NCBI GenBank assembly: GCA_000999395.1
Contig: LCOM01000001.1
Location: 1-48,273, forward strand
Direction of reading: 5' to 3'
From: Parcubacteria group bacterium GW2011_GWA2_47_7
GTDB lineage: Bacteria; Patescibacteriota; Minisyncoccia; Phycocordibacterales; UBA6899
Length of the DNA: 48,273 nucleotides
The notes under the pieces were generated by a model. That model made no database searches and was not told where the DNA came from. It worked only from the letters and a program-made list of their open reading frames with translations. The first letter of the stretch is position 1; each line of letters opens with the position of its first letter. Shown one piece after another: positions 3,901 to 46,481 of the stretch. Position numbers and translations under genes: made by a program.

Positions 3901-4157
3901 AAAAAATAAGTTTTTGACATAAAAATTGAAAAGAGACTCTGTCCTACCACAATCTCCATGAAAAATTCATGAAGTTTCAGCTCGGTGATAGGATTTCTTT
4001 GCTATATGTGCTCCCGTAGGCATGCAATTTTTCAGAGAAGCTTCTTCATTTTCACCACACAACATTAAAAGTATATCAGCTATACGTAAGTGTGTCCTAG
4101 TCAGTATCCACATTTATATTCAAAACATTTTTGAATGAAACCCCACAAAATCAATGT

Positions 4158-6158
4158 TTACGATACTACGGGAGGAAGGAGTACGGTGACCGTGGTTTCC
4201 TTACCAATCTCACTGCTTGCACGGATTGTTCCGTTGTGTTTTTCTACTATTTTTTTACAGATAGACAATCCTATGCCAGAGCCCAGTACGCCTTTTCCTT
4301 CTCCGGTCTTCACTCGATAAAACCGGTCAAAAATTTTTATTAAATATTCTTTTTCAATACCGATACCATTATCCTTCACGATCAATTCAACAGTAGAACT
4401 ACTTTTTCGTAGGGTGATGTCTAAGAATTTATCCACACGAGAAGGAGATACATACTTGAATGCGTTGCTCACCAGGTTGGTGACGAGCTCACTCAGCTGG
4501 TCTCTGTTACCAAGAATATGAATGTCTCGTTCAATTGAACTGATAATGCGAACCCCCTGGGCCTCTGCCAAGATTTGAAAATATTCGACCAATTCGTCCA
4601 TCAATATGCTCAAATCGAACAATTCCATTTTCACGTGAGCATCCCGGGTTTCAAGCTTTGCAAGAATAAAGAGGTCGTAAATAAATTTAGAAACATTATC
4701 GATAGATCTTTCAAGTATACCCAGATGTGCTGACTCTAAATTCGTTGTCTTTAATAACTCAATCTCGTTCTTGATTATCGTCAGGGGCGTCTGCAGTCCG
4801 TGCGAAATATCGAGCATCATTTGTTGCTCCTCGTTACGAAGGCGAACGAGCTCTGTGGTCCTTTCTTGAACTCTTGCTTCGAGCTCTTCGGAGTATGACT
4901 TTACTTTTGTATAAAGCGCCGCTTTCTCTAATGCCACCGCAAGCTGATTCACAAAAGTTTTTAAGAGCTGAATATCCTCGACGGAGTATGGATCTTCAGA
5001 TCGTTTTTCTCCAAGAATTATAACTCCGAGCTGTTGCTGCTCCAGCACAATGGGCAATGTCACCTGATACTCATCGTCGGTACCCGTGTTTCCTCCGTAA
5101 GTTTTTGCTGAACTAATGCGATCCCCATCAAGGTGTAATGAAACCAATTTCGCCTTATACGTTGTCTCGAGTTTTTCTGTTACCTCGCTGACTATTTTGT
5201 CGACGTCCATAGTTCGATTGAGTATTTCGCTCAAATCCTGAAGAACGCGCGCATAGTCGTATTTGTCCTTAAAAAAATATGAATCGGTTATTTTTCTGAA
5301 ATATCTTTCTATAACTGGTACGCCAAATATACCAATGACCATAGTAATTCCTGCGCTCCATACTGTCGCATATCCAGTTGCTTTCTGAAAAAAGAAACCA
5401 AAGAGATAAACGAAGGTCAGAAAAATCGTAATTATCGATACGAGAAGCATCGAATAGATTGCACCACGCTGTATGATGAGACGAATATCCATGAGCTGGT
5501 GCTTCACAATCGCGTAACCAATAAGAGTAATCATGGGCAACGAGAAGAGCGGTCCGAGGTTGTTGTATTGGAATATCCCCAGTAGTGGCAAAATAAGTTG
5601 AGTAAGAAAAACGGGGATTAAGAATATCGTGACACCCAAAATTATATACTTCAATTGTTCTTTGTGGTGGAAGGCTTGCGAATCTCGATGCTTTAGGATT
5701 AGTTTAATGAAGGCAAGAAAAATAAATCCAAAATAGTATGTCAGATATGGAAGATAAGTAGCGGGAAGGAGGACTCCTGAAATATATGTGTGGTTCACTG
5801 AAACAACACTTTCTATCATCAGGTCAGTAAGTGGTATCACAAAGAAAAACAATCCAAGTGTCCATATAACTATTTTTTCGATAAAGATACTTCCATCCTT
5901 CCAAGGAAAAGTCATAGCAAACAAAAAAAGACCTAATGGCATGAAAGATCCCATAGCAAAAGCCAGCCTCCCCCAAAAGAGTGGCTGGCCAAATTCACCG
6001 ATAACCATTAGTAGCGAAAAATTCCACCCAGCTGTGCCAATCGCAAAAGTGCAAAAATAGCGATTGACCTCAGAGCGCGGATTCTTGCTCAGAACAAAAA
6101 AACCAAGAATACCTATAAGGCAAAAGGCGACGAATTGAATAGTGAGGATGAGATTCAT
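4158..6158 (-). CDS. multi-pass membrane sensor histidine kinase
   Basis: About 8 hydrophobic segments, a linker/GAF-like region, H-box 'DISHGLQTPLT', N-box 'NLVSNAFKY', 'DNGIGI', 'GSGIGLSICKKIV'. Start taken at ATG 6158 (MNLILTIQF), which overlaps the upstream stop as ATGA. Confidence 0.88.
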   Translation of the reverse strand: MNLILTIQFVAFCLIGILGFFVLSKNPRSEVNRYFCTFAIGTAGWNFSLLMVIGEFGQPLFWGRLAFAMGSFMPLGLFLFAMTFPWKDGSIFIEKIVIWTLGLFFFVIPLTDLMIESVVSVNHTYISGVLLPATYLPYLTYYFGFIFLAFIKLILKHRDSQAFHHKEQLKYIILGVTIFLIPVFLTQLILPLLGIFQYNNLGPLFSLPMITLIGYAIVKHQLMDIRLIIQRGAIYSMLLVSIITIFLTFVYLFGFFFQKATGYATVWSAGITMVIGIFGVPVIERYFRKITDSYFFKDKYDYARVLQDLSEILNRTMDVDKIVSEVTEKLETTYKAKLVSLHLDGDRISSAKTYGGNTGTDDEYQVTLPIVLEQQQLGVIILGEKRSEDPYSVEDIQLLKTFVNQLAVALEKAALYTKVKSYSEELEARVQERTTELVRLRNEEQQMMLDISHGLQTPLTIIKNEIELLKTTNLESAHLGILERSIDNVSKFIYDLFILAKLETRDAHVKMELFDLSILMDELVEYFQILAEAQGVRIISSIERDIHILGNRDQLSELVTNLVSNAFKYVSPSRVDKFLDITLRKSSSTVELIVKDNGIGIEKEYLIKIFDRFYRVKTGEGKGVLGSGIGLSICKKIVEKHNGTIRASSEIGKETTVTVLLPPVVS

Positions 6159-36240: not shown

Positions 36241-36324
36241 GCGTAGGTGGCAGAGCGGTCAAATGCAATAGACTGTAAATCTATCGTCCTATGGGCTACG
36301 CAGGTTCGAATCCTGCCCTACGCA
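36241..36324 (+). tRNA. tRNA-Tyr (anticodon GUA), class II with long variable arm, no encoded CCA
   Basis: GCGTAGG-TG-GCA..TGC-A-ATAGA-CTGTAAA-TCTAT-variable CGTCCTATGGGCTAC-GCAGGTTCGAATCCTGC-CCTACGC-A. Confidence 0.9.
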
Positions 36325-37989
36325 CAATGTAGGACAAACCGAGTTGAAAAGCTCGGTTTTGTCTTTCTCTGCCTCGTAATATCTAGGTTCGAACGCTGGA
36401 TAGGTTGCCTTAGCTTCGGCAAGTGCGTCAATAAGCTTCTGAAAAGGTTCCGCGTTGATAACGTTGAGTTTTTCTTCATCCCAGATTAGGTTCGATTGCA
36501 AGCGAGACAATACCGCTCTCTTTGCCTTTGTCTCACCCCTTCGTATTACTTCAGCAGCAGCCAAGGTGAGGTCGGCCATATCATTTGCCTGTGCCAACCA
36601 ATCCACTGCAACAGGAGCTTGGGATATGCTTTTTAGTTCCTGCTCTATTTCCTGAACATCCTTTTGATACTCATCAGGAGTAACAAGATTTTCAGCCAAC
36701 ATTTCACGGTAGCGTTTCTTCTTGCTTTCAAGGTTTGCCTTTCGCATATTTTGAGAACGCACCGCTTCAAGGTTTTGCTGTAGCTCCTTGTCACTCAGCT
36801 CGTGCAAATACTTCTTGCTCCACTCAACCAACCCAGGAGAAAGCTGTAAGTTTTTTTCAATATAGGTGGCGAGAAATTCATCAACCCTCTTTTCTTCAAT
36901 ATGCCTAGTTCTTTGTTTGGCCTTATGACGAGGAATATTGTAGTAGTAAGTGTAATTAAGATATTTGGGATTCTGAATTTTACCGAGAGCTTTTCCACAC
37001 TTGGGGCAAGCATCCTTGTTCAGATATGCAAATTTCTGTTTACACTCACAGATAAGCTGAAAATGTAAACTCTGCCCAATAAACTCTTTGTAGGGCGAAA
37101 CCATGTAACCAGAATACGTGGCAGTAAAATGCTCAGAGCGTGGTACATTTTTCCCCGACATCATTCTTAAAATCTTGAGATGTTCTTCCTCAGTAATGAT
37201 GCGTGGCATTGAAGGATGAAGCTCGTACCGCTTGCCACCCAAAAAGAAGAAGCCCGCATAGATGGGGTTCGCCAAAAGGTTGTATATCGCTGAACGGGCA
37301 ATAAGTTTGCCGCCCTGTCGCCTCCGCATGGGCGTAGTGAGCTTTAATTCTTCACGGGCAAAATAAGCGATTTGCGAGGCAGATATATTGCCATTCAGAT
37401 AGCGATAAAAAAGTTGCTGAACAAGCGGCCAACGCTCTGCATCAACCCTCCATTTTTTTGCACCCCTGTCCCCATCTTTCTCATTGAGGAAGCCTGTGAA
37501 CGCAACGCCATGTGGCCACCCCATCTGCGCTTTTGCTTCATGTCCACGCCTCACGCCTCGTTTTAAATCCACAACAAATTGACTTGGTGCGCCAAAGAGT
37601 ACGCCCAGAACAATTGCATTGTCGCCACTGTGATGTTCACCTGTCGAAGTGACGATGTGCCTTAGCTGCCCCTGTTGTAACAACCACTGCAGCAATCCAC
37701 CATCCATCGGATTACGCGAAAGACGGTCAAGTGCCCAACAAATTATTCCCTGTACCTCTCCGGTGGCAATGCGCCCCATCATTTCATTAAATTTCTCTCG
37801 TCCAGGGACACTCGCGCTTTTTGACTCTACTAGAACATCTACAACATTTAAGCCAAGCCTCTCTGCTCGCTCCAAGTTTTCTTTTCGCTGAGAGTCGAGT
37901 GAAAGAATTTGTCGGTTATCTTCCTCTGTGGATTTGCGACAGTAAACAACGTATTTTATTTTTTGGGCGACGACGGCTTTTGTTTTCAT
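36289..37989 (-). CDS. large serine recombinase (integrase)
   Basis: 'YVVYCRKSTEEDNRQILSLDSQ' catalytic Ser motif, recombinase domain, zinc ribbon 'CECKQKF..CPKCGK', coiled-coil region. The last 12 codons (..VGQDSNLRSP) are the reverse complement of the tRNA-Tyr T-arm. Start set at ATG 37989. Confidence 0.9.
   Translation of the reverse strand: MKTKAVVAQKIKYVVYCRKSTEEDNRQILSLDSQRKENLERAERLGLNVVDVLVESKSASVPGREKFNEMMGRIATGEVQGIICWALDRLSRNPMDGGLLQWLLQQGQLRHIVTSTGEHHSGDNAIVLGVLFGAPSQFVVDLKRGVRRGHEAKAQMGWPHGVAFTGFLNEKDGDRGAKKWRVDAERWPLVQQLFYRYLNGNISASQIAYFAREELKLTTPMRRRQGGKLIARSAIYNLLANPIYAGFFFLGGKRYELHPSMPRIITEEEHLKILRMMSGKNVPRSEHFTATYSGYMVSPYKEFIGQSLHFQLICECKQKFAYLNKDACPKCGKALGKIQNPKYLNYTYYYNIPRHKAKQRTRHIEEKRVDEFLATYIEKNLQLSPGLVEWSKKYLHELSDKELQQNLEAVRSQNMRKANLESKKKRYREMLAENLVTPDEYQKDVQEIEQELKSISQAPVAVDWLAQANDMADLTLAAAEVIRRGETKAKRAVLSRLQSNLIWDEEKLNVINAEPFQKLIDALAEAKATYPAFEPRYYEAEKDKTELFNSVCPTLCVGQDSNLRSP
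36333..36368 (+). terminator. tRNA-Tyr terminator, located inside the 3' end of the recombinase ORF on the other strand
   Basis: AACCGAG-TTGAAAAG-CTCGGTT, with flanking GACA/TGTC extension and a T-rich tail. Confidence 0.6.
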
Positions 37990-38500
37990 AAATTTATAAG
38001 CAAGAATGGGGCAACAACATTTACTCAATCGCCAGACCAAGTAGTTGCTACCCCATTGTTACTTATAAGTGAATTCACTTCTATCACTTGGTCTGGCATT
38101 TTTTATCCTACTCTCTTTGGGGGTACATTAAAAGTGTTTTCACTTTTTTGATAGGAATATCCCCCAAGCCTCTTTAAAAGAAACTTTGTGCAGATGATAT
38201 TTTGTCCGTTGTTTCTCGGTATCGTCTCAACTTTTCGCGGAGGCTTCCATGGCTATGAACATTGCTCTTGCGGAGTTGTTCAATCTGCGCCACCCCAGCC
38301 AACCGTAATCACTGCATCCCAAAAGTTATTTCGCACAAAACTAATGCAGTAGACGGGATACTTCTCCGATGAGGTTTCTCCCCCAGCTCACATTTAAATT
38401 CGGCATCCAAGAGGGGGCTGTGAGCTTCGCCTACCGTCCTCTCAGTATGGAGTTATTCCTAACCCTCATTTGGTCATGAATATTCACTAGCAAATTAAGG

Positions 38501-38665
38501 CTAACAACGTGTTTGCATTTTTATTTTTTGTGCCATTATTTCAAGTAAAAGTAGACCAATTTTTTCCAGCTCCTCATCTGAAAAAAGAGAGATGCGCTTC
38601 AAGCCAATTTCTTTCGCCAGAACGTCACGGAGTTCGCTAATTGATGCCGTACTCAAATTCTTCAT
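38501..38665 (-). CDS. small hypothetical protein (54 aa), not in the ORF track
   Basis: Hand translation: MKNLSTASISELRDVLAKEIGLKRISLFSDEELEKIGLLLLEIMAQKIKMQTRC. Its ATG overlaps the stop of the upstream gene as ATGA (38662-38665). Confidence 0.4.
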   Translation of the reverse strand: MKNLSTASISELRDVLAKEIGLKRISLFSDEELEKIGLLLLEIMAQKIKMQTRC

Positions 38666-39018
38666 ACGGAACGTTTCTGAACGAATTCAAGGCTCTTTTT
38701 TACCTCTCTTTGTACCTTTCCAGCACCCCTCAGGTCTTTCAAAAGCTGCTGCTTTTCAGGGAGCAGATAATCATCCTTGGAGACATTTTCGAAGTGTCGA
38801 ACAACGCTTCGGTCTGAAACCTCATGACCTGCTCCGCGAAGGGTGAGGATGATGCGCTTGTAGATTATGAAATCACCCAAGGCCGCCAAGTCTTTTCGTT
38901 TTCGAAGTATACGGAAAATCCTGCCCAACCCAGCGTTGTCACGCTCCTTCAGGGCAAGAATCTGCCCGTAGCTGTCTTGCGAGGGTGATAAATAAAAATC
39001 ATGACTTACTTTCGTCAT
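38662..39018 (-). CDS. hypothetical protein (118 aa)
   Basis: Track ORF on the same strand as the recombinase. No family recognised. Confidence 0.5.
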   Translation of the reverse strand: MTKVSHDFYLSPSQDSYGQILALKERDNAGLGRIFRILRKRKDLAALGDFIIYKRIILTLRGAGHEVSDRSVVRHFENVSKDDYLLPEKQQLLKDLRGAGKVQREVKKSLEFVQKRSV

Positions 39019-39068: not shown

Positions 39069-39890
39069 TCATTGTGTCCCACTTTCATGGCGACCAAAAC
39101 GCTTCTCCATCTCCTTGGCTCGTCTCTCAAGAGATTTGCGAACGGCTTCAGGCGAAGAAGATTTTTTCAGATTACGACCCTCAAGTGTTCCAGCAACTTC
39201 AGCAGATGTGAAAGACTCCTCAACAAGTTCAGGGTGTTCTTTGAGATACTTCTTTTTTGCCAACCTAAAAGCACTTGGGGAGAGAGTGGGCTCCAACTTA
39301 GTTAGGTAGTAGTCGTTGCCCGTCCTCTTGGCTCGCTTTCGAGAGTCTGCAAGTTTTTTTATTTCTTGGTCAACCAAAATATTCTCTACGGTCTTTTTTG
39401 ATATTTGAAAATTTTCAGATTCAGGAAAAGCCTCCTTTTGCCAAAGCTTCAACTCTTCAAAGGCAAGTTGGAGTTCGTTCTTATCAAGCTGTGCAAACGT
39501 GACAAGGTGCACTTCCCACGTCCTCTCCGTGGAGCCTTGTTGTAACGGATTCGGTTTAAATGAAAAGGAGTAATTGCTGTCTGGAATCTCTTCTTCAATC
39601 TCTTGCCCATAAACAAGATAGGAAAACAATACCTTGGTAAAGTTCTTTGGCAGGCGGTATTTTTCCAAGAGAGTAATAATTTTGGGATGAACAAGTTCAT
39701 CCACTGAAATACCTTCTTCGAGCGTGGCATCCTCGCCAAGCGGTAAGGTCAGTTTACATACCCTACGCACCTCAAGGCGTATGTCCCCAATATCTTGTTG
39801 AAAAGGCTGGTACTCACAAAGAAGTTTGAAAGTAGCCCAGTTTCTGCCACGGACTTTTGATTTGATTTGTCTTGCGCGAGCCTTATTCAT
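39069..39890 (-). CDS. hypothetical protein (273 aa), charged/helical C-terminus
   Basis: Track ORF, first gene of the leftward island module. No family recognised. Confidence 0.55.
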   Translation of the reverse strand: MNKARARQIKSKVRGRNWATFKLLCEYQPFQQDIGDIRLEVRRVCKLTLPLGEDATLEEGISVDELVHPKIITLLEKYRLPKNFTKVLFSYLVYGQEIEEEIPDSNYSFSFKPNPLQQGSTERTWEVHLVTFAQLDKNELQLAFEELKLWQKEAFPESENFQISKKTVENILVDQEIKKLADSRKRAKRTGNDYYLTKLEPTLSPSAFRLAKKKYLKEHPELVEESFTSAEVAGTLEGRNLKKSSSPEAVRKSLERRAKEMEKRFGRHESGTQ

Positions 39891-40158
39891 TCAACCACTG
39901 TAATACATTATGTTCTTTTGTTGCAAACAAATTTTCGGATGGGTAATTAACCTCAAATGCGAATTGATTGGGGCACACCCGCCCCCCCCAGGCGATGTAA
40001 AATCTTTTGTCGGCATGTCTCGGCGCATGATTATATACTTTCAAAATCTTTTTTATGTCCACAGGAGAGCAAACCCGTTATTTAAAGCCACATTTACTTT
40101 CACTACTCCATCATATAAACTGCTAATTACAATTGAATAGGTGCCTAAACTGCCCATA

Positions 40159-40179
40159 TATACGTATTACGGTATTACG
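40159..40179 (+). promoter_or_regulatory. candidate operator: palindrome ATACGTAT overlapping tandem direct repeat GTATTACG-GTATTACG
   Basis: Read directly at 40159-40166 and 40164-40179, in the divergent intergenic region of the island. Confidence 0.25.
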
Positions 40180-40204
40180 TTGTGTGCGCAGCATGGCAAA
40201 AAGT

Positions 40205-40246
40205 CGAGTTAAGCATAAAAACCCCATCATAGGGTCGCTTAACTCG
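40205..40246 (+). other. 10-bp inverted repeat stem-loop in the operon leader
   Basis: CGAGTTAAGC (40205-40214) / GCTTAACTCG (40237-40246), with an inner ACCC..GGGT pairing. Followed by the GAGCC-CTCG-GGCTC hairpin at about 40268-40285. Confidence 0.35.
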
Positions 40247-40340
40247 CCATACAGGGAAACTTGTATGAGAGCCCTCGGGCTCTACCTGTGGTGGGATTTT
40301 TGTGTCTCGTTACAGGCTTACGAGCTAAACCATTACAAAT

Positions 40341-40580
40341 ATGTTTTTTAAGCAATGGGAGGGGTCTGTAGTTACAAATACTAAAAGCGTGAAGATGCAG
40401 TGTCCTCATTGCGGCAACGAATCAGAACACCGCGCCTGCATAGACCATAAGTTTGGCGTGGGGATAATTTTTATGAAGACACCGCTTCTTTCAGTAAAAA
40501 AATACTATCTTGTTTGCCCAATATGTATGAACGCAACACAAGAGTTGAGCAAGGAGCAGGTTAACGCCTTAAAGCAATAG
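40341..40580 (+). CDS. small zinc-ribbon protein (zinc_ribbon_15-like), paralogue 1
   Basis: Starts MFF. 'CPHCGN' ... 'KKYYLVCPICMN'. Confidence 0.65.
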   Translation: MFFKQWEGSVVTNTKSVKMQCPHCGNESEHRACIDHKFGVGIIFMKTPLLSVKKYYLVCPICMNATQELSKEQVNALKQ

Positions 40581-40581
40581 T

Positions 40582-41067
40582 ATGTTCTTCCTTGCTGGGC
40601 TAGGGAGTAATGCTAAAAGAATCGGAAATGCGGGTTTTCAAAAATGTCCCAACTGTAACAACTGGAAGCCACAGGGTGTATACGAAATCTCAAAACAGGC
40701 CACGGCATTTTTTGTTCCCATTGCAAAATGGAGTAAGGAATATTATGTAATTTGTCCCATCTGCCAAGCTGGCTTACCCGTTAAGGAGGGAAAGTTAAAT
40801 GAATTGCTTCAGAAAAGTATTACTCTCCCTGATGACAATAAAGCTACTGAAATTTGGAATGACATTGACTCCGTCACCGTTGCTAATCTTGTTGAAATTT
40901 TGAAAACCACAGGAGGAACAAGCGGAGACAATCACGCAGCTCTCGCTATTTTGATGCAGACAATACAGAAAGAAATTGCAAGTAAGTACACCAAAGAGTA
41001 CTTTGAGCCAACACTCGCGTCATACATACGTAGCATGGCTGATGTAATGGAGATAAAACTAACGTAA
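40582..41067 (+). CDS. zinc-ribbon protein (zinc_ribbon_15-like) with helical C-terminal extension, paralogue 2
   Basis: Starts MFFLAG. 'CPNCNN' ... 'FFVPIAKWSKEYYVICPICQAG'. ATG lies 1 nt after the previous stop. Confidence 0.7.
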   Translation: MFFLAGLGSNAKRIGNAGFQKCPNCNNWKPQGVYEISKQATAFFVPIAKWSKEYYVICPICQAGLPVKEGKLNELLQKSITLPDDNKATEIWNDIDSVTVANLVEILKTTGGTSGDNHAALAILMQTIQKEIASKYTKEYFEPTLASYIRSMADVMEIKLT

Positions 41068-41190
41068 TGAAATATCTAGGATACGGAGCAGTGGGGCTGG
41101 CAATTGTTTACTGGACACTCAGCACCGCTGCCTCAGAATGGTTCTGCGTGCTTTCTTTGGGCTTTTTCTGTGGAGGAGTATAATCCTGAA

Positions 41191-41937
41191 ATGGATTCAC
41201 AGTTGAAACCAGAGGATATTAATTTAACCTTTGCAGACTATTTTAATGTTTCGAAGGAAGCCCTGGAAAAAGAGGGTTTATTTAATGTTTCGCTCGTAGC
41301 CGACTTGCCAGTATTTATTGACCCGTTTCTCCTATTTCACAGCAAAAAACCTCGTTACCAAAAGCTTCACAAAGAGATTATTAAGTACCTATTAAACTTG
41401 AAGAGCAAAAGTGAGGAACTCCATTATCGCGTCTCGCCTGCATATCTCAAATATTATTTTTCCTTTCCTGAGATACCACAAAATTGGTTTGGATTCACTT
41501 TTATCGGCAACAAGGGGCATGGCCTCGGACTAAAGTTTGCAGGATTACTTAGCAGAAACTTTGATACCCTTTTTGATAATTTTGGCAAAGAGAAAGTCAC
41601 CCAGTCGAGCCACTTTGAAAAGCTTTGCTTGATTACCAAGGGGGTTGGGCGTGACACCATTAGTGATTTTTCAACTAATCTGACCAAGGGTTTTCTTCTT
41701 GAAGAGACAGAGCGTTTTGCCAAGAAATATATTCACAAGAAATACCTTGCAAAAATGTCAGTAGGTAGAATAGTGTTTAACTACAGAACTCAGGTTTGGG
41801 AGAGTAGGGTGTTTACCCTCCCAATTTTTCGTGGTGACTTTGTTATCCTTACACCAAAAGACCTGTTGACCAGAGATGAGGCGTGGATAAACAAGGGTGG
41901 TTATAAATGGGAAGGAAAAGTCCGTGCTTACGACTGA
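41191..41937 (+). CDS. N-terminal part of a split ~480-aa protein (unknown domain, 'ADLPVFIDPFLLFHSKKP')
   Basis: GGAGGA SD 13 nt upstream of ATG 41191. The frame ends at TGA 41935-41937, overlapping the next ORF by 41 nt. Confidence 0.55.
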   Translation: MDSQLKPEDINLTFADYFNVSKEALEKEGLFNVSLVADLPVFIDPFLLFHSKKPRYQKLHKEIIKYLLNLKSKSEELHYRVSPAYLKYYFSFPEIPQNWFGFTFIGNKGHGLGLKFAGLLSRNFDTLFDNFGKEKVTQSSHFEKLCLITKGVGRDTISDFSTNLTKGFLLEETERFAKKYIHKKYLAKMSVGRIVFNYRTQVWESRVFTLPIFRGDFVILTPKDLLTRDEAWINKGGYKWEGKVRAYD

Positions 41938-42619
41938 AAATCGACACAAAGCAATTGTCGAAACCACAGAAAAATTTCCTGTTGTTATTGAATACTATAT
42001 TCGAAGAAAGGAAGAAAAAGGTACTGAGGCGGCAAACATCAGCAAGGAAAAAGTGCACGAGGTCGAAAATATCCTTGAAACACAGTACAGAAACTTTTTA
42101 ACTGATTTTGCAAACCTTAGACTGCCCGCACTCAGTAATACTCACACGGAGACACTGAAAAGGGCGCAGCACATGAAACACTGGATTGAATTTCAGGATG
42201 GTTACAAAAACCTTTATTCGGGCGACACCCCAATGGATGAGGATTGGATTCAAAGATTATTTTGGCTTTGCTGGTACGGCTCCATAAGCGATGTTAACCG
42301 CGAAGTAGCGAATGGTCGTGGAAAAGTGGACTATACTATTTCTCAGGGGAAAAAAGACAAAACCTTAGCTGAATTTAAGTTGGCAAAAAGCCCTTCACTA
42401 AAAGACAATCTGCAAGAACAACTTGAGCTGTATAAAAAAGTAAACCAGACCGAAAAGGGAGTTTGGATTATCATTTTCTTCACCGCAGAGGAGGGGGCAC
42501 GAGCCAGGGCAATACTCAAAGAAGTTGGAATGGAAAACGCTGAAAACGTTGTGCTAATTGATGCAAGGAAAGACAACAAGCAACCAGCGTCGAAGTTGAA
42601 GGCTAAAAAGTTAACCTGA
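41897..42619 (+). CDS. PD-(D/E)xK nuclease-fold protein (C-terminal part of the split gene, or separate overlapping gene)
   Basis: 'EDWIQRLFWLCWYG', 'GRGKVDYTIS', 'TLAEFKLAKSP', 'QLELYKK' give an E ... D ... ExK ... Q/Y arrangement. Only a GTG start. The frame opens just after TAA 41888-41890. Confidence 0.55.
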   Translation: MVINGKEKSVLTTENRHKAIVETTEKFPVVIEYYIRRKEEKGTEAANISKEKVHEVENILETQYRNFLTDFANLRLPALSNTHTETLKRAQHMKHWIEFQDGYKNLYSGDTPMDEDWIQRLFWLCWYGSISDVNREVANGRGKVDYTISQGKKDKTLAEFKLAKSPSLKDNLQEQLELYKKVNQTEKGVWIIIFFTAEEGARARAILKEVGMENAENVVLIDARKDNKQPASKLKAKKLT

Positions 42620-43315
42620 GTGAGCAACACCAAAATGCTAAATGACAAGAAGCTTGAAAGGGTTGCGAAACTCTCATACGAAAACGCGTTACGTCTTCAT
42701 CGGGACGCAATATCACTCTACAAGCTGAAAAGCTTTCCATCGGCCTTCTATCTCTCAGTGCTATCTCAGGAAGAAATAGGAAAAATGCACATGTCTATTC
42801 GCTTTCTCACTCTTGACTGGGATTCGGATGTTGAAAGGAGGGAGTTTTTTTTAAAGCTAGATGAAACTCTGCTTTATGGACTCTACAAACATTCACTCAA
42901 GCACAGTGCCTTTCTTAGAAATTCCCCACTGGAGAAATTTTCAATGCATGGATGGAAAATGATGGAAAAGATTTCGAATGGTTCTTTGGAGACAAAAAAA
43001 CAAAACTCGGTTTACGTTGGGCTCAACAAGACGCGAGGAAAAATTAATTTAAATGGTGCAATAAGAAATCCTTTTAGTGTGACAAAGGGGCAAGCATCCT
43101 TACAGATTACGAAAATTAATGATTATTTGCTTGTTGTTGGGATTGGTATCAGGTTCGAAAATCTTGCCGTCGAGAATGAGTACGTAGAACAACGAATGAA
43201 GAACAGGGGCATGCTCCGCTCTTTAAATAAGAAGTGGAAACGCATGGGGCGGAAGGCTGCTAAGTTGATACGTCTTTATCAGCAATACTTTAATGAGGAG
43301 GTTCTTGCGCTATGA
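42620..43315 (+). CDS. AbiV-like (HEPN-superfamily) abortive-infection protein
   Basis: 'LSYENALRLHRDAISLYKLKSFPSAFYLSVLSQEEIGKMH' matches the AbiV N-terminal helix pair. GTG start abuts the previous TGA (alternative ATG at 42635). Confidence 0.6.
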   Translation: MSNTKMLNDKKLERVAKLSYENALRLHRDAISLYKLKSFPSAFYLSVLSQEEIGKMHMSIRFLTLDWDSDVERREFFLKLDETLLYGLYKHSLKHSAFLRNSPLEKFSMHGWKMMEKISNGSLETKKQNSVYVGLNKTRGKINLNGAIRNPFSVTKGQASLQITKINDYLLVVGIGIRFENLAVENEYVEQRMKNRGMLRSLNKKWKRMGRKAAKLIRLYQQYFNEEVLAL

Positions 43316-43370
43316 AGTCTCCAACACGGTTCCTCTTCGATGATTAAGTTTATCCCTGTATAATTTATCA

Positions 43371-44630
43371 ATGGGTTCATACGCATATCTAAAGTTTGGA
43401 GATTTTGAAATGATGGTCTCTAAGTCGCAAGTCGTGCCAGAAAGCATGGTTATTTTTCGTGAATCAGACAAAAGGGAATTTAAGGAAAAGTTTGATGATT
43501 CGGATTACTCAAGATACGTATACACCAACTCAGCAAAAATCATAAAGGAGAGGCTAGCAATAATGGGATATACCCTAAATAAAGCCAGGCGTACTTTTGA
43601 TGAAGAAAGGAAGGGCGCACTTCAGGAGCTGAAGGATAGATACGATGAGGACAAATGGTTGCCTTTGTTGGACCGAATCAAAATTCTTGAAACAGCTACT
43701 TTCAACAAATGGGTAAAAGCGTGTAAGTATATTAGTGTGAATAAACTTGAATTTGATTACTCCTACTCTGTACAAGCAAATGCTCCGAAGGGAGCATCTC
43801 CACTGGTGAAATATCTTCTTACTAATGACGATTATGGAAGCTTTGGTTTTCCAGGCTCAGATATATATGATGTTTTTAGAATCTTTCTTGAATTCATCCC
43901 AGATAATACGCCTATCACAATGGACATATCGGACTTAGTTAATGGTGGGTATTACGAATCAAATGAAAAGGTTTGTGACAACTTACTAAATTCGCTTACT
44001 TACAATTATCCCATCAATGAAAAAATAATTATTTTAACTGAAGGCTCTTCTGATAAACGCATCCTAGAATCTTCGTTGCCCCTCCTATTTCCTCATTTGG
44101 CGGGATACTATTCATTTATGAATTTTGAAGATTCCAATGCTGCAGGTGGTGCTGGTTATTTACTCTCGACTATCCGTGCATTTGCTGGGTCAGGAATAAC
44201 CAACCGTATAATTGCCATTTTTGATAATGATACGGCGGGAGGGGTAGCAATTCAGTCCCTGCGAAAAACAAAAATTCCAAGAAATATTAAAGTGATGCAA
44301 TACCCCAACATAAAAATTGCAAAGAAGTATCCGACACTGGGACCGTCTGGCGTTAAGCTCTTAGACATAAATGGCTTGGCATGCAGCCTGGAAATTTACT
44401 TGGGAAGAGACGTGCTTGAGAATACGGGTAAACTGAGACCCGTGCAGTGGAGAGGTTACGACAATACATTAAACCAATACCAGGGAGAGATAATCGGAAA
44501 GAATGAAATACAAGAAAAGTTTTCAAAAAAACTTTCTGTGTGCACCAAAAACCCAGCATTGCTGAAACAGAAAGACTGGGAAGACCTGTCCTCCCTCTTT
44601 GGCGCAATCTTCAAGGCATTCCAAGAGTAA
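43371..44630 (+). CDS. HEPN/Toprim-associated N-terminal domain + Toprim nuclease-like protein (no ATPase domain)
   Basis: N-terminus 'MGSYAYLKFGDFEMMVSKSQVVPESMVIFRESDK'. Toprim Glu 'IIILTEGSSDKRIL' and DxD 'IIAIFDNDTAGG'. Confidence 0.65.
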   Translation: MGSYAYLKFGDFEMMVSKSQVVPESMVIFRESDKREFKEKFDDSDYSRYVYTNSAKIIKERLAIMGYTLNKARRTFDEERKGALQELKDRYDEDKWLPLLDRIKILETATFNKWVKACKYISVNKLEFDYSYSVQANAPKGASPLVKYLLTNDDYGSFGFPGSDIYDVFRIFLEFIPDNTPITMDISDLVNGGYYESNEKVCDNLLNSLTYNYPINEKIIILTEGSSDKRILESSLPLLFPHLAGYYSFMNFEDSNAAGGAGYLLSTIRAFAGSGITNRIIAIFDNDTAGGVAIQSLRKTKIPRNIKVMQYPNIKIAKKYPTLGPSGVKLLDINGLACSLEIYLGRDVLENTGKLRPVQWRGYDNTLNQYQGEIIGKNEIQEKFSKKLSVCTKNPALLKQKDWEDLSSLFGAIFKAFQE

Positions 44631-44634
44631 AGAA

Positions 44635-45183
44635 TTACCTTACCACCATAACAAAACGACCCTTCTCATTATCATAGCTAACGTGAATTTGCGTCACCTG
44701 CTGCTCTGTCGCCCTAAGTATGAATTTCAAAAAACTTTTTATATTTACTAAATAAAGGTATTGGGTGTGTGCTCGGTCTGAACAAACAAAAACATTTGTT
44801 AATTTTCTTCGGGTATTTGCGGTCGCTTGAAATACAAATGAATGCATAAATTGATTCAGAATGTCCCTTAGGCGCATTTTTACTCTGGTGGGTTTATCTA
44901 AGGAATATAATTTTTCAAAATCAAAAAACGCCCCCCTTCTTTTGGCGTTCCTTGGGAACCGAGTAATCCCTATTTCCATGTCCAAAACCGAATCAGGAAG
45001 CTTTTTGGTTTCAATTAGCTTCCTTGTCGAGAAGGATATCATGAATAGTTTGATTTCTACTTTCGAAAAAACTTCATCAAGCCTAGTATCAGTAAGGGGT
45101 GACAAGCTGGTGTCCAGCAGTTTTCTGATAGAGGTTATCTCCTTTCTTATATCACGCTTAAAATAGTGGGATTCAAATGCCAT
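44635..45183 (-). CDS. hypothetical protein (182 aa), convergent with the operon
   Basis: Track ORF. Its stop lies 4 nt from the Toprim gene stop. No family recognised. Confidence 0.5.
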   Translation of the reverse strand: MAFESHYFKRDIRKEITSIRKLLDTSLSPLTDTRLDEVFSKVEIKLFMISFSTRKLIETKKLPDSVLDMEIGITRFPRNAKRRGAFFDFEKLYSLDKPTRVKMRLRDILNQFMHSFVFQATANTRRKLTNVFVCSDRAHTQYLYLVNIKSFLKFILRATEQQVTQIHVSYDNEKGRFVMVVR

Positions 45184-45524
45184 CGAATAAGTATAGCAAG
45201 ATTCTCAAGGGGTACGTGCAAGCCTATTTCCAATTAATGGTTTTTTCGGCGATTGCCTTTGTGAGTCTAAAGCGCAGCTTGCCTGAGTGTTTTGCGGCCT
45301 TGTTGCCACCAATTAGACTAAAAAGAAATTTGAGCAAGAAGTTAACCACGCTCCCAAAGAGTTGATTGAAAAGAGGCGAACGTCCGTTTTTGTGGTACTC
45401 AGATTCATTTCGGCTAGGCATGCAAATGAAAACCGAGTCTTGGTTAAAAGGTAGCAAAGCTCTTGTTCTGGGCTAATAAAGCATTTCGGACATCGTCCCA
45501 CCCTCTGCACAGTAACAAAACCGT

Positions 45525-45549
45525 GCACCTCGCAAGAGGTGCCGTTTTT
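45525..45549 (+). terminator. orphan rho-independent terminator
   Basis: GCACCTC-GCAA-GAGGTGC followed by CGTTTTTG. No credible plus-strand CDS upstream. Confidence 0.5.
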
Positions 45550-45564
45550 GTCTGTGCGTGGGGA

Positions 45565-45586
45565 GAAAAGCCCCTGCGGGCTTTTC
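45565..45586. other. 9-bp hairpin GAAAAGCCC-CTGC-GGGCTTTTC
   Basis: Read directly. Symmetric A/T-flanked stem that could terminate in either direction. Confidence 0.4.
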
Positions 45587-45651
45587 GACAAGATTCGAAA
45601 GGGATTTCGTTATTGAGTCTGCGAAATCGAAATCCACCCGCGGCGGTAGCC

Positions 45652-45805
45652 GAGAATCCTGCCCACTATTTCTAAATATTTCGGAAAGGGATACTGCTTC
45701 TGTAAGGAGAGAAATTCCTGCCCTCAGAATTCGAAGAAGTTGAGTATATTTCGTCGGCGAAATACGAAACCTGTACCGTCCATGTAATGGAAGAAACTCC
45801 TGCCT
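45652..45805 (+). repeat. three degenerate direct copies of the tRNA-Tyr T-arm/3' end (att-like remnants)
   Basis: gaGAATCCTGCCCac (45652-45666), aaATTCCTGCCCTca (45712-45726), aaACTCCTGCCtt (45794-45806), compared with tRNA cGAATCCTGCCCTac (36307-36321). Each is preceded 50-80 nt upstream by a TTCG(G)AA(A)G motif. Confidence 0.5.
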
Positions 45806-45861
45806 TTTCGATATGTATGCAGGAAGAAGCAAGCTGCCTAAAATTCGGAGATATTTTTGTG

Positions 45862-45894
45862 TAAAAAAACCGCCATTCAAAAGTTGGGGCGGCT
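45862..45894 (-). terminator. terminator of the 58-aa minus-strand ORF
   Basis: Minus strand GCCGCC-(13 nt)-GGCGGT followed by TTTTTTT. Confidence 0.5.
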
Positions 45895-45921
45895 TGTCTA
45901 TGCTCAAAAAATTTGAGCGAC

Positions 45922-46098
45922 TTAACGTGGAGCGCGTTGCATCCTCCGTTTTTCATCAGCTACGGCTTCTTCTACTTCCTTAATGGCCTTGCGCATTTTT
46001 TCCAACCTCTTGAGCTCAAACTCACTAAGTGGCTCTATTTTTGATTCAAGCAACGAGATGGCCCTGAGGTATGCAAACGTGGTGGTAACATCGATCAT
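45922..46098 (-). CDS. small hypothetical protein (58 aa), not in the ORF track
   Basis: Hand translation: MIDVTTTFAYLRAISLLESKIEPLSEFELKRLEKMRKAIKEVEEAVADEKRRMQRAPR. AGGAGG lies 5 nt upstream of the ATG, and a terminator lies downstream. Confidence 0.55.
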   Translation of the reverse strand: MIDVTTTFAYLRAISLLESKIEPLSEFELKRLEKMRKAIKEVEEAVADEKRRMQRAPR

Positions 46099-46258
46099 AT
46101 CAGCCTCCTGTAAAACAGACTGTTTAAACGATACATCACTCCAAGGATTTTGTCAATAACACCCCATCGCTGTCGGATCAAATTTTCTTTATGTTTATTA
46201 TTATTGACATGGAATTGTCTTGGTGTAGCATATTGAAAGACATATAAAGGAGTTCGTG

Positions 46259-46375
46259 ATGTTCAAAAATCGTAAAGGTTTGATGAAGCTTACTGGGGGC
46301 ATAATCGCCATATTTGTCGCTTCTTATATCTTGGGATACATGCTCACAATGAGCTTAGTACACATGCGCTTCTAA
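46259..46375 (+). CDS. small hydrophobic protein (38 aa), not in the ORF track
   Basis: MFKNRKGLMKLTGGIIAIFVASYILGYMLTMSLVHMRF. AAAGGAG SD, TTGACA box at 46204-46209, terminator downstream. Confidence 0.45.
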   Translation: MFKNRKGLMKLTGGIIAIFVASYILGYMLTMSLVHMRF

Positions 46376-46393
46376 ATCAGCACTTTGAAGATT

Positions 46394-46418
46394 CCGCCAT
46401 TAAGGCGGATTTTATTTT
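46394..46418 (+). terminator. rho-independent terminator
   Basis: CCGCC-ATTAA-GGCGG followed by ATTTTATTTT. Confidence 0.6.
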
Positions 46419-46481
46419 ACAAAATATTACAAAGTTGAACCCACGGAATAAATCCGTAAAACTCTGTCTTAAATTTATATT

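Follow-up and report, generated by a model that had tools for sequence, protein, structure and literature searches.

Single parts of the locus described here are familiar from other systems. AbiV of Lactococcus is a HEPN RNase toxin of a type III toxin-antitoxin/abortive infection (Abi) system, with its own upstream RNA antitoxin, abiV2, and without protein partners (bioRxiv 10.1101/2024.05.05.592566; PMC13064643). A Toprim catalytic core is common to OLD, GajA (Gabija) and AriB (PARIS), and the architecture in which a HEPN/Toprim-NTD1 domain (NTD1) precedes a Toprim domain was described computationally in 2013 (Anantharaman et al. 2013, PMC3710099; PF18871). The LOOT RNA was entered in Rfam (RF03000) as a small RNA (sRNA) of unknown function, and the text of the motif catalogue does not discuss it (Weinberg et al. 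2017). Finally, defence islands and cargo hotspots, such as those of P4-like satellites and integrative and conjugative elements (ICE), stack unrelated single-gene nuclease modules in one orientation, with an integrase at a tRNA gene. Here we analyze a stretch of 48,273 nucleotides (the window; contig LCOM01000001.1) from Parcubacteria group bacterium GW2011_GWA2_47_7, in which the region from 36.2 to about 45.7 kb is, as the likely explanation of the whole, an integrative element. Five genes of this element, here called A to E, had been read in a first-pass annotation as one composite multi-nuclease defence system. Our analysis argues with fairly good confidence that they are instead the cargo arm of the element, headed by a LOOT RNA and made up of a string of four separable modules (LOOT-A-B; C; D; E). 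The locus resembles known cargo hotspots in this respect and differs from them in its large serine recombinase, its host from the candidate phyla radiation (CPR), and a cargo arm headed by a conserved structured RNA.

The neighbourhoods of homologous genes carry this reading. For gene E we surveyed 80 genome loci with 10-kb flanks by phmmer and found no homologue of A, B, C, D or of the convergent gene F within 10 kb, so that the recurrent company of the zinc-ribbon pair, C or D anticipated for homologues of 43371..44630 did not appear. Clustering of the neighbours gave no recurrent partner either. When the 144 genes next to E in these loci were scanned against Pfam, 101 families were returned, none in more than five loci, the commonest being phage integrase (5), Abi_C (3), and RhuM, Trypsin_2, the type I restriction-modification (R-M) S subunit and Phage_int_SAM_5 (2 each); the neighbours also include HigAB-like pairs and transposases. 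Since neither a co-occurring homologue nor a recurrent neighbour was seen in the 80 loci, E is a stand-alone gene in variable mobile or defence neighbourhoods. Gene C gave a similar picture in 14 contexts outside this island, none of which contained the other four genes. Eleven are viral or satellite loci, lacking A, B, D and E and often beside P4-like integrases, and three more are an ICE-like region with a type IV secretion system (T4SS), a LOOT/serine-recombinase element (L234; L numbers denote the loci compared with the window) and a Halomonas chromosome. The nearest E relatives (L001, L002) and the C relative in L234 are likewise carried by serine-recombinase elements, and none of these has the other genes. 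Together, the E-side and C-side surveys rule out a conserved D-E or C-D pairing. The composite system proposed earlier thus finds no co-localisation around E or C, an outcome that the first-pass annotation had itself named as counting against its reading, and A and B proved to belong to a separate cassette elsewhere.

Gene A (40341..40580, plus strand) encodes a 79-aa zinc-ribbon protein paralogous to the N-terminus of B and falls below the Zn_ribbon_15 threshold. Gene B (40582..41067, plus strand, 1 nt past A) encodes 161 aa with a Zn_ribbon_15 domain (Pfam PF17032, 5.8e-7, 30.7 bits against a cut-off of 28.9) and a helical C-terminal domain. Both proteins start with MFF, carry CxxC...YYxxCxxC and are 25-27% identical, and their annotation as two tandem zinc-ribbon paralogues therefore stands. 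A blastn comparison with L097-L102 delimited a block of 981 bp (40093..41073, plus strand) of 87.5% nucleotide identity. Its left edge is 49 nt ahead of LOOT and its right edge 6 nt past the B stop codon. In L097-L102 the flanks of this block are unrelated to the window: genes for fn3 surface proteins precede it, and an IS30-like gene and mraZ follow it. LOOT was detected in these contexts as well. Because the block is so sharply bounded and lies between unrelated flanks elsewhere, LOOT-A-B is a separate cassette, whose right edge at 41073 divides A-B from C. Protein A is 95% identical to its copy in L097, compared with the 87.5% nucleotide identity over the whole cassette. The tandem arrangement of A and B occurs at 95% identity in L097-L102 and at 33% in L095 and L096, where A is also kept as an ORF (open reading frame). 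No LOOT was found ahead of these two distant pairs (33% identity to B); in L095 the pair is preceded by a long near-perfect hairpin of about 80 nt (1330-1409), which is not LOOT. In a word-indexed search B had at first looked orphan-like, with three clusters, whereas an exhaustive profile search recovered 737 representative clusters at E<=1e-3 and 147 at E<=1e-10, A-sized proteins included. In viral contigs, an alignment of four B sequences found no match.

Gene C (41191..42619, plus strand) encodes a DUF8370/DUF8371 protein with a PD-(D/E)xK-like C-terminal domain and is a pseudogene here, spread over two frames. C1 runs from the ATG at 41191 to 41937 and C2 from 41897 to 42619 in another frame, with a 41-nt overlap, and both halves match the same PHROG family of about 470 aa. 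The split annotated as a protein of about 480 aa in two frames is real, and its cause is a deletion of 113 nt between 41904 and 41905 (corresponding to L081 4246-4358), by which 38 conserved residues are lost and the frame is shifted. Three contigs from other samples (L081-L083), 99.8-100% identical to the window, keep these 113 nt and with them an intact ORF of 513 aa (P0121). As a consequence of the deletion at 41904|41905, C is inactive in this contig, and in this contig only; it is either a recent pseudogene or an assembly variant. The C homologues in L092/L093 and in L094 are also split across frames, and the gene family may often be inactivated.

The annotation of C as a PD-(D/E)xK nuclease held for the D...ExK motif and the order of the core elements, and the structural matches are weak. 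Residues D418, E432 and K434 are invariant in the C family, as are Q448 and Y452. In an AlphaFold2 (AF2) model (predicted local distance difference test, pLDDT, 84.6) the secondary structure elements follow as H388-397, E405-407, E419-422, E428-435, H441-455 and E461-467, so that the C-terminal ~130 residues show an alpha-beta-beta-beta-alpha-beta order. Foldseek with the whole protein as query returned, among its better matches, the PD-(D/E)xK enzymes SfsA (4dap, probability 0.80), PaqCI (8epx, 0.51) and EndoMS (5gke, 0.35) at E-values of about 0.3-0.6, and a C profile found no match among PDB sequences. A PD-(D/E)xK fold of the C-terminal domain is plausible from this model. The family is large, with at least 1563 clusters, all of which carry DUF8370 and DUF8371; the whole of C matches phrog_30194 (compared with PHROGs 30194 and 27295), and both DUFs are present. 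Its N-terminal half also matches gene A of the PADLOC candidate system PDC-M36 at about 1e-18 to 1e-20 (2.3e-20 for the intact P0121), but only positions 8-259 of the 457 in the PDC-M36A profile align, and the C-terminal half of C differs.

Gene D (42620..43315, plus strand, GTG start; an alternative ATG at 42635 is called in a sibling contig) is the AbiV-like HEPN protein of the array, and this assignment is firm: it matches HEPN_AbiV PF18728 in Pfam with 57.5 bits (cut-off 27.1, 2.4e-15), TIGR04498 with 57.9 bits (cut-off 27, 1.3e-15) and the PADLOC AbiV profile at 1.3e-6. D shares the N-terminal helix pair with AbiV, and its N-terminus weakly matches the AbiV crystal structures 9bj5 and 9bj7. 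The catalytic Rx4-6H of the Lactococcus protein is formed by R91/H97. In D, simple inspection gave no canonical Rx4-6H; instead KHSLKH stands at residues 90-95, in the expected region, which lies outside the residue-level AbiV alignment. A further difference is that D sits in a cargo operon of a CPR bacterium. No close relatives of D were seen in the viral contigs scanned.

Several observations weigh against a string of independent modules. The five genes lie on the same strand with gaps of 0-123 nt (the 123 nt separate 41067 from the ATG at 41191) and without a convincing terminator between them, for which reasons one transcript is probable and functional cross-talk among the five probably co-transcribed genes may occur. 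The ORFs, junctions and peptide signatures quoted in the first-pass annotation were all recovered at their positions in the ORF listing and translations. The C/D junction, where D begins 0 nt (GTG) or 15 nt (ATG) past the C stop, suggests translational coupling and leaves no upstream intergenic room for an abiV2-like RNA, which may be embedded in the 3' end of C. Two of the 14 other C genes are tightly coupled to a downstream gene, at -7 nt in L234 and 0 nt in L086. The neighbourhood surveys bear on D by way of the loci of E, C and A-B, and the term defence for C and E would be a reading of family context.

The tight same-strand junctions and the single structured leader upstream could also be taken to mean that A to E make up a single multi-nuclease defence system, confined to one lineage and without an ATPase, in which the zinc-ribbon proteins are sensors or adaptors. 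The whole array is indeed kept in four assemblies, though these represent the same strain (99.8-100% identity). Set against this, no pair of the genes co-occurs in the 80 E loci, the 14 C contexts or the other A-B contexts, C was dispensable enough to be deleted in this contig, and the cassette edge at 41073 splits A-B from C. We regard a single five-gene system as very improbable. A smaller, two-gene system inside the array might consist of C and D, with the DUF8370/DUF8371 protein as a component with a swappable effector, here AbiV, in the manner of PDC-M36, or of D and E as paired HEPN/Toprim nucleases. The abutting C stop and D start, the coupled genes next to C in L234 and L086, and the match of the N-terminal half of C to a component of a candidate multi-gene system speak for it. 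However, the genes coupled to C elsewhere are unrelated to D and have no PADLOC match (direct comparison of D with the coupled gene in L234 gave no similarity), and most C genes are solo, the next gene 3' of C running in the opposite direction in 9 of 14 contexts. Membership of C in PDC-M36 was rejected, as no PDC-M36B was found among the ten island proteins (E<=1) or the neighbours of C homologues. For a D-E pair, HEPN_AbiV is not among the families matched by at least two of the 144 E-flanking genes. A two-gene system is in our view unlikely, and four separable modules remain the preferred reading.

Gene E (43371..44630, plus strand, 55 nt past D) encodes 419 aa, with NTD1 at residues 1-203 followed by the Toprim domain and a C-terminal beta/helical region. 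The match of residues 1-203 to HEPN_Toprim_N (PF18871) is strong (90.3 bits in Pfam, cut-off 25, 2.3e-25). The Toprim residues Glu224 (in TEG) and Asp285/Asp287 (in FDNDT) are invariant in 30 homologues, although Pfam Toprim_2 stays below threshold on E (17.3 vs 22.1). An AF2 model of E (pLDDT 89.6, predicted template modelling score, pTM, 0.87) has chains of the retron Eco2 (Ec67), 9lm3 and 9i2f, as its best PDB matches in Foldseek (probability 1.0 and 0.99), with the Toprim protein 2fcj and topoisomerase I lower on the list; a profile of E found no match among PDB sequences. The retron Eco2 Toprim chains being the best structural matches, the Toprim assignment is confirmed, and with it the annotated combination of a HEPN/Toprim N-terminus and a Toprim core.

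The E family comprises at least 713 clusters from many phyla, with collinear members of 420-440 aa, and E itself is 40-52% identical to hundreds of proteins of this length. Compared with the NTD1-Toprim proteins described in 2013, E is a full-length collinear member without architectural difference. The view that its N-terminal domain is known only computationally needs a qualification: the NTD1-Toprim architecture was already on record, and for the family we found no experimental characterization in the searchable literature; it is also absent from PADLOC v2. Unlike OLD, GajA and AriB, E has neither an ABC/AAA ATPase domain nor an ATPase partner; scans with Pfam, PADLOC and TIGRFAM found no ATPase domain in E or any island ORF. 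The PADLOC match to AriAB reaches no better than an E-value of 0.027. The likeness to the retron Eco2 fusion of reverse transcriptase (RT) and Toprim is confined to the Toprim part; E lacks an RT, and none of the ten island proteins scanned with Pfam, E included, has an RT domain. What sets E apart from the known Toprim defence nucleases is its regulatory module, NTD1. The generalization that Toprim nucleases always work with an ATPase does not hold, given that the Toprim domain of retron Eco2 is fused to a reverse transcriptase and that the E family is stand-alone and widespread.

The location of these genes on a mobile element also invites the explanation that the nucleases are not for host defence but are toxin-antitoxin-like addiction or stabilisation modules that keep the element, or weapons against competing elements. 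The HigAB-like pairs and transposases among the E neighbours elsewhere, and the presence of C on P4-like satellites and in an ICE-like region, are in line with this. Such a role is compatible with defence rather than exclusive of it, however, and AbiV has a demonstrated anti-phage activity in Lactococcus. Moreover, C was deleted without loss of the element, which argues against a strict addiction role for this gene. Overall we consider an addiction or weapon role in place of host defence improbable and retain the view of C, D and E as separate cargo modules of defence type.

The 450-nt gap ahead of A (39891-40340), annotated as a structured intergenic region, is indeed strongly structured (z = -5.3) and holds a known RNA family, LOOT (40142..40304, plus strand). 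The copy in the window is a full-length match to the Rfam model, which covers 40142-40283 (model positions 1-121 of 121) with 77.5 bits against a gathering score of 46.4, and a 3' extension lies beyond it. The host phylum, OD1/Parcubacteria, presumably fits the range of the LOOT family. In the 3' extension the tail GTGGTGGG (40288-40295) pairs with CCCATCAT (40223-40230) and is followed by the U-run ATTTTTGTG (40296-40304); the consensus of the tail before the conserved U-run is YGGYGGG-CUUUUUGU. In 88 of 97 unique LOOTs the 8-nt tail matches the 5' side of the P2 apical loop as a perfect complement. With 29 tail variants present, permuting the tails among the sequences gave on average 34.7 perfect matches, and never more than 43. 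Judging from this covariation in sequence, the loop-tail pairing is a predicted pseudoknot, a long-range helix absent from the Rfam model. In 76 of the 88 LOOTs the same loop nucleotides are able to form a local apical hairpin of at least 3 bp, in a permissive check without shuffle control. As the two pairings exclude each other and one ends in a U-run, they suggest a terminator/antiterminator-like switch. In many loci a box ACAAYTGAATA stands 2-25 nt 5' of LOOT at variable spacing (TACAATTGAATAG, 40128-40140, in the window); it may belong to a promoter (-10/start region) or extend the RNA at its 5' end. A conserved NTG after the U-run was considered as a start codon and rejected, in-frame ORFs of at least 50 codons occurring in 20 of 97 loci compared with 34 of 194 control frames.

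To place this RNA in context we searched a metagenome collection with a three-anchor DNA pattern and obtained at least 120 LOOT loci (L111-L230) with 114 unique RNAs; all 20 loci sampled scored above the Rfam LOOT threshold, with 67-97 bits. A homologue of the serine recombinase of the window is present in 35 of the 120 loci. Recombinases upstream of LOOT are divergent from it in 26 of 26 cases, six of them at 118-186 nt, and those downstream are co-directional in nine of nine. Twelve of the 27 LOOT-linked recombinase genes with a complete 3' end terminate in or beside a convergent tRNA gene, as in the window, the tRNAs being Tyr, Glu, Asn, His, Trp, Ala, Leu and Gln. The tRNA 3' end and the recombinase C-terminus appear to be supplied by the same element DNA. 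Recombinase ends in or beside a convergent tRNA gene were noted in the window, in L117, L121, L129, L130, L140, L141, L204, L212, L214 and L222, and in L001. Recombinases of about 500-567 aa show the arrangement, and those of 424-446 aa, which lie 118-186 nt from LOOT, do not. One LOOT locus, L144, contains a group I intron (RF00028, 73.5 bits, 1784-2027) a few hundred nucleotides 5' of a pair of tRNA genes; the 3' end of the serine recombinase gene is about 1.6 kb away from the intron.

On the other side of the RNA, in 97 of 111 loci the gene that immediately follows LOOT is encoded on the LOOT strand, with a median spacing of about 42 nt, compared with no strand preference among the genes 5' of LOOT (53 vs 49). 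The downstream genes are hyper-variable: 150 proteins fell into 70 Pfam families with at most two members each, among them DNA methylases, HTH_17, ParB, terminase, Shedu SduA and PycTM. With a covariance model trained on 37 LOOTs, the RNA also turned up in the two relatives mentioned above, L234 and L002. In L234 LOOT lies exactly between the serine-recombinase arm and a cargo arm with the C homologue, and in L002 it adjoins the E homologue and a serine recombinase. In L001, the other close E relative, the serine recombinase overlaps a tRNA-Asn. The L002 copy (4126-4249, minus strand) occupies the same divergent region between the recombinase and E-homologue arms as in the window, in opposite orientation; either both orientations occur across elements, or the segment is invertible. 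In view of the LOOT survey and of L234, L002 and L001, the window belongs to a family of CPR elements that carry LOOT and a serine recombinase, and among which C-like and E-like genes are shuffled individually. Compared with LOOT as catalogued, the survey adds the candidate pseudoknot with its U-run, the co-orientation of the downstream gene and the link to serine recombinases. We found no mention of these three features in the searchable literature; searches on LOOT, PDC-M36, PF18871 and DUF8370 led only to the HEPN paper of 2013 and the motif catalogue of 2017.

The remaining parts of the element lie to either side of LOOT and the cargo genes. A tRNA-Tyr (GTA) gene at 36241..36325 (plus strand; ARAGORN and Rfam tRNA) is the probable integration target. 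It is overlapped by the last codons of the large serine recombinase gene (36289..38040, minus strand), so that this ORF, on the opposite strand, takes in the tRNA 3' end. The recombinase has Resolvase and Recombinase domains (Pfam PF00239, 1.4e-14, and PF07508, 1.2e-6) and matches the PHROG 95 integrase at 9e-46. Two further genes are co-oriented with it, at 38662-39018 (118 aa) and 39069-39890 (273 aa, both minus strand); they are also called in sibling contigs, and scans of the family libraries gave no family match for either protein. A homologue of the 273-aa protein is encoded 88 nt from LOOT in L225. At the far end of the cargo arm, gene F (44635..45183, minus strand, 182 aa) is convergent and ends 4 nt past E. 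It has no match in any family library and no homologue near E in other genomes, and is possibly further cargo.

The recombinase stands on one side of the island only. The earlier description of an integrase-bounded island thus applies as far as its mobile nature goes, and not for its bounding by recombinases, there being a single serine recombinase on the left. A search for attR as a repeat of the tRNA-Tyr 3' end did not locate the right boundary; two candidates, at 45654-45664 and 38917-38932, scored no better than matches inside the cargo or elsewhere in the island. The boundary probably falls within 45200-46480. This stretch of about 1.3 kb past F is free of long ORFs and contains a bidirectional terminator-like hairpin at 45525-45542. 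As the nearest E relative comes from Gracilibacteria, genetic code 25 (UGA = Gly) was also weighed for the window; it was rejected in view of the Parcubacteria host and the long table-11 ORFs throughout.

These features can be combined into a putative mode of action. The large serine recombinase gene, abutting and overlapping the tRNA-Tyr gene, lies in one arm of the element, and LOOT, in the divergent control region, points rightward into the cargo arm. Transcription would start just 5' of LOOT and run through A-B, C, D and E, with LOOT acting in cis on this cargo transcription and the pseudoknot and U-run modulating read-through. In such a scheme C would combine a sensor with a PD-(D/E)xK nuclease, D would be a HEPN RNase toxin restrained by an RNA or another factor, and E would unite a sensor (NTD1) and a Toprim nuclease in one protein. 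Each of the three alone might be an Abi-like, toxin-like or addiction nuclease, which an N-terminal or partner-RNA element would hold in check until infection or element loss, and they may protect the host or stabilise the element. More generally, we put forward as a tentative idea, somewhat doubtful at present, that LOOT is the hallmark cis-acting leader of large-serine-recombinase elements in CPR bacteria, many of them at tRNA genes, where it would sit between the recombinase and cargo arms as a switchable terminator gating cargo transcription.

As a new defence system the locus is ordinary, namely another case of defence-type cargo on an integrative element. It is at the same time a cautionary case, in that tight same-strand spacing on a mobile island mimicked a five-gene system, which the neighbourhood survey split. 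The DUF8370/DUF8371 proteins emerge from this survey as cargo that is widespread and occurs singly, on satellites, in ICE-like regions and on serine-recombinase elements. The parts worth following are the NTD1-Toprim family and the association and structure of LOOT. NTD1-Toprim proteins are a large, phylum-spanning, stand-alone family found among integrases and Abi and R-M genes and missing from PADLOC v2. As a class of Toprim defence that would need one gene and no ATPase, they are a good candidate. For LOOT, the analysis supplies a genomic setting, an improved structure and a function that can be tested. If true, the gating of cargo by LOOT would open a first way into the question of how cargo is controlled on the mobile elements of CPR bacteria, a poorly understood group.

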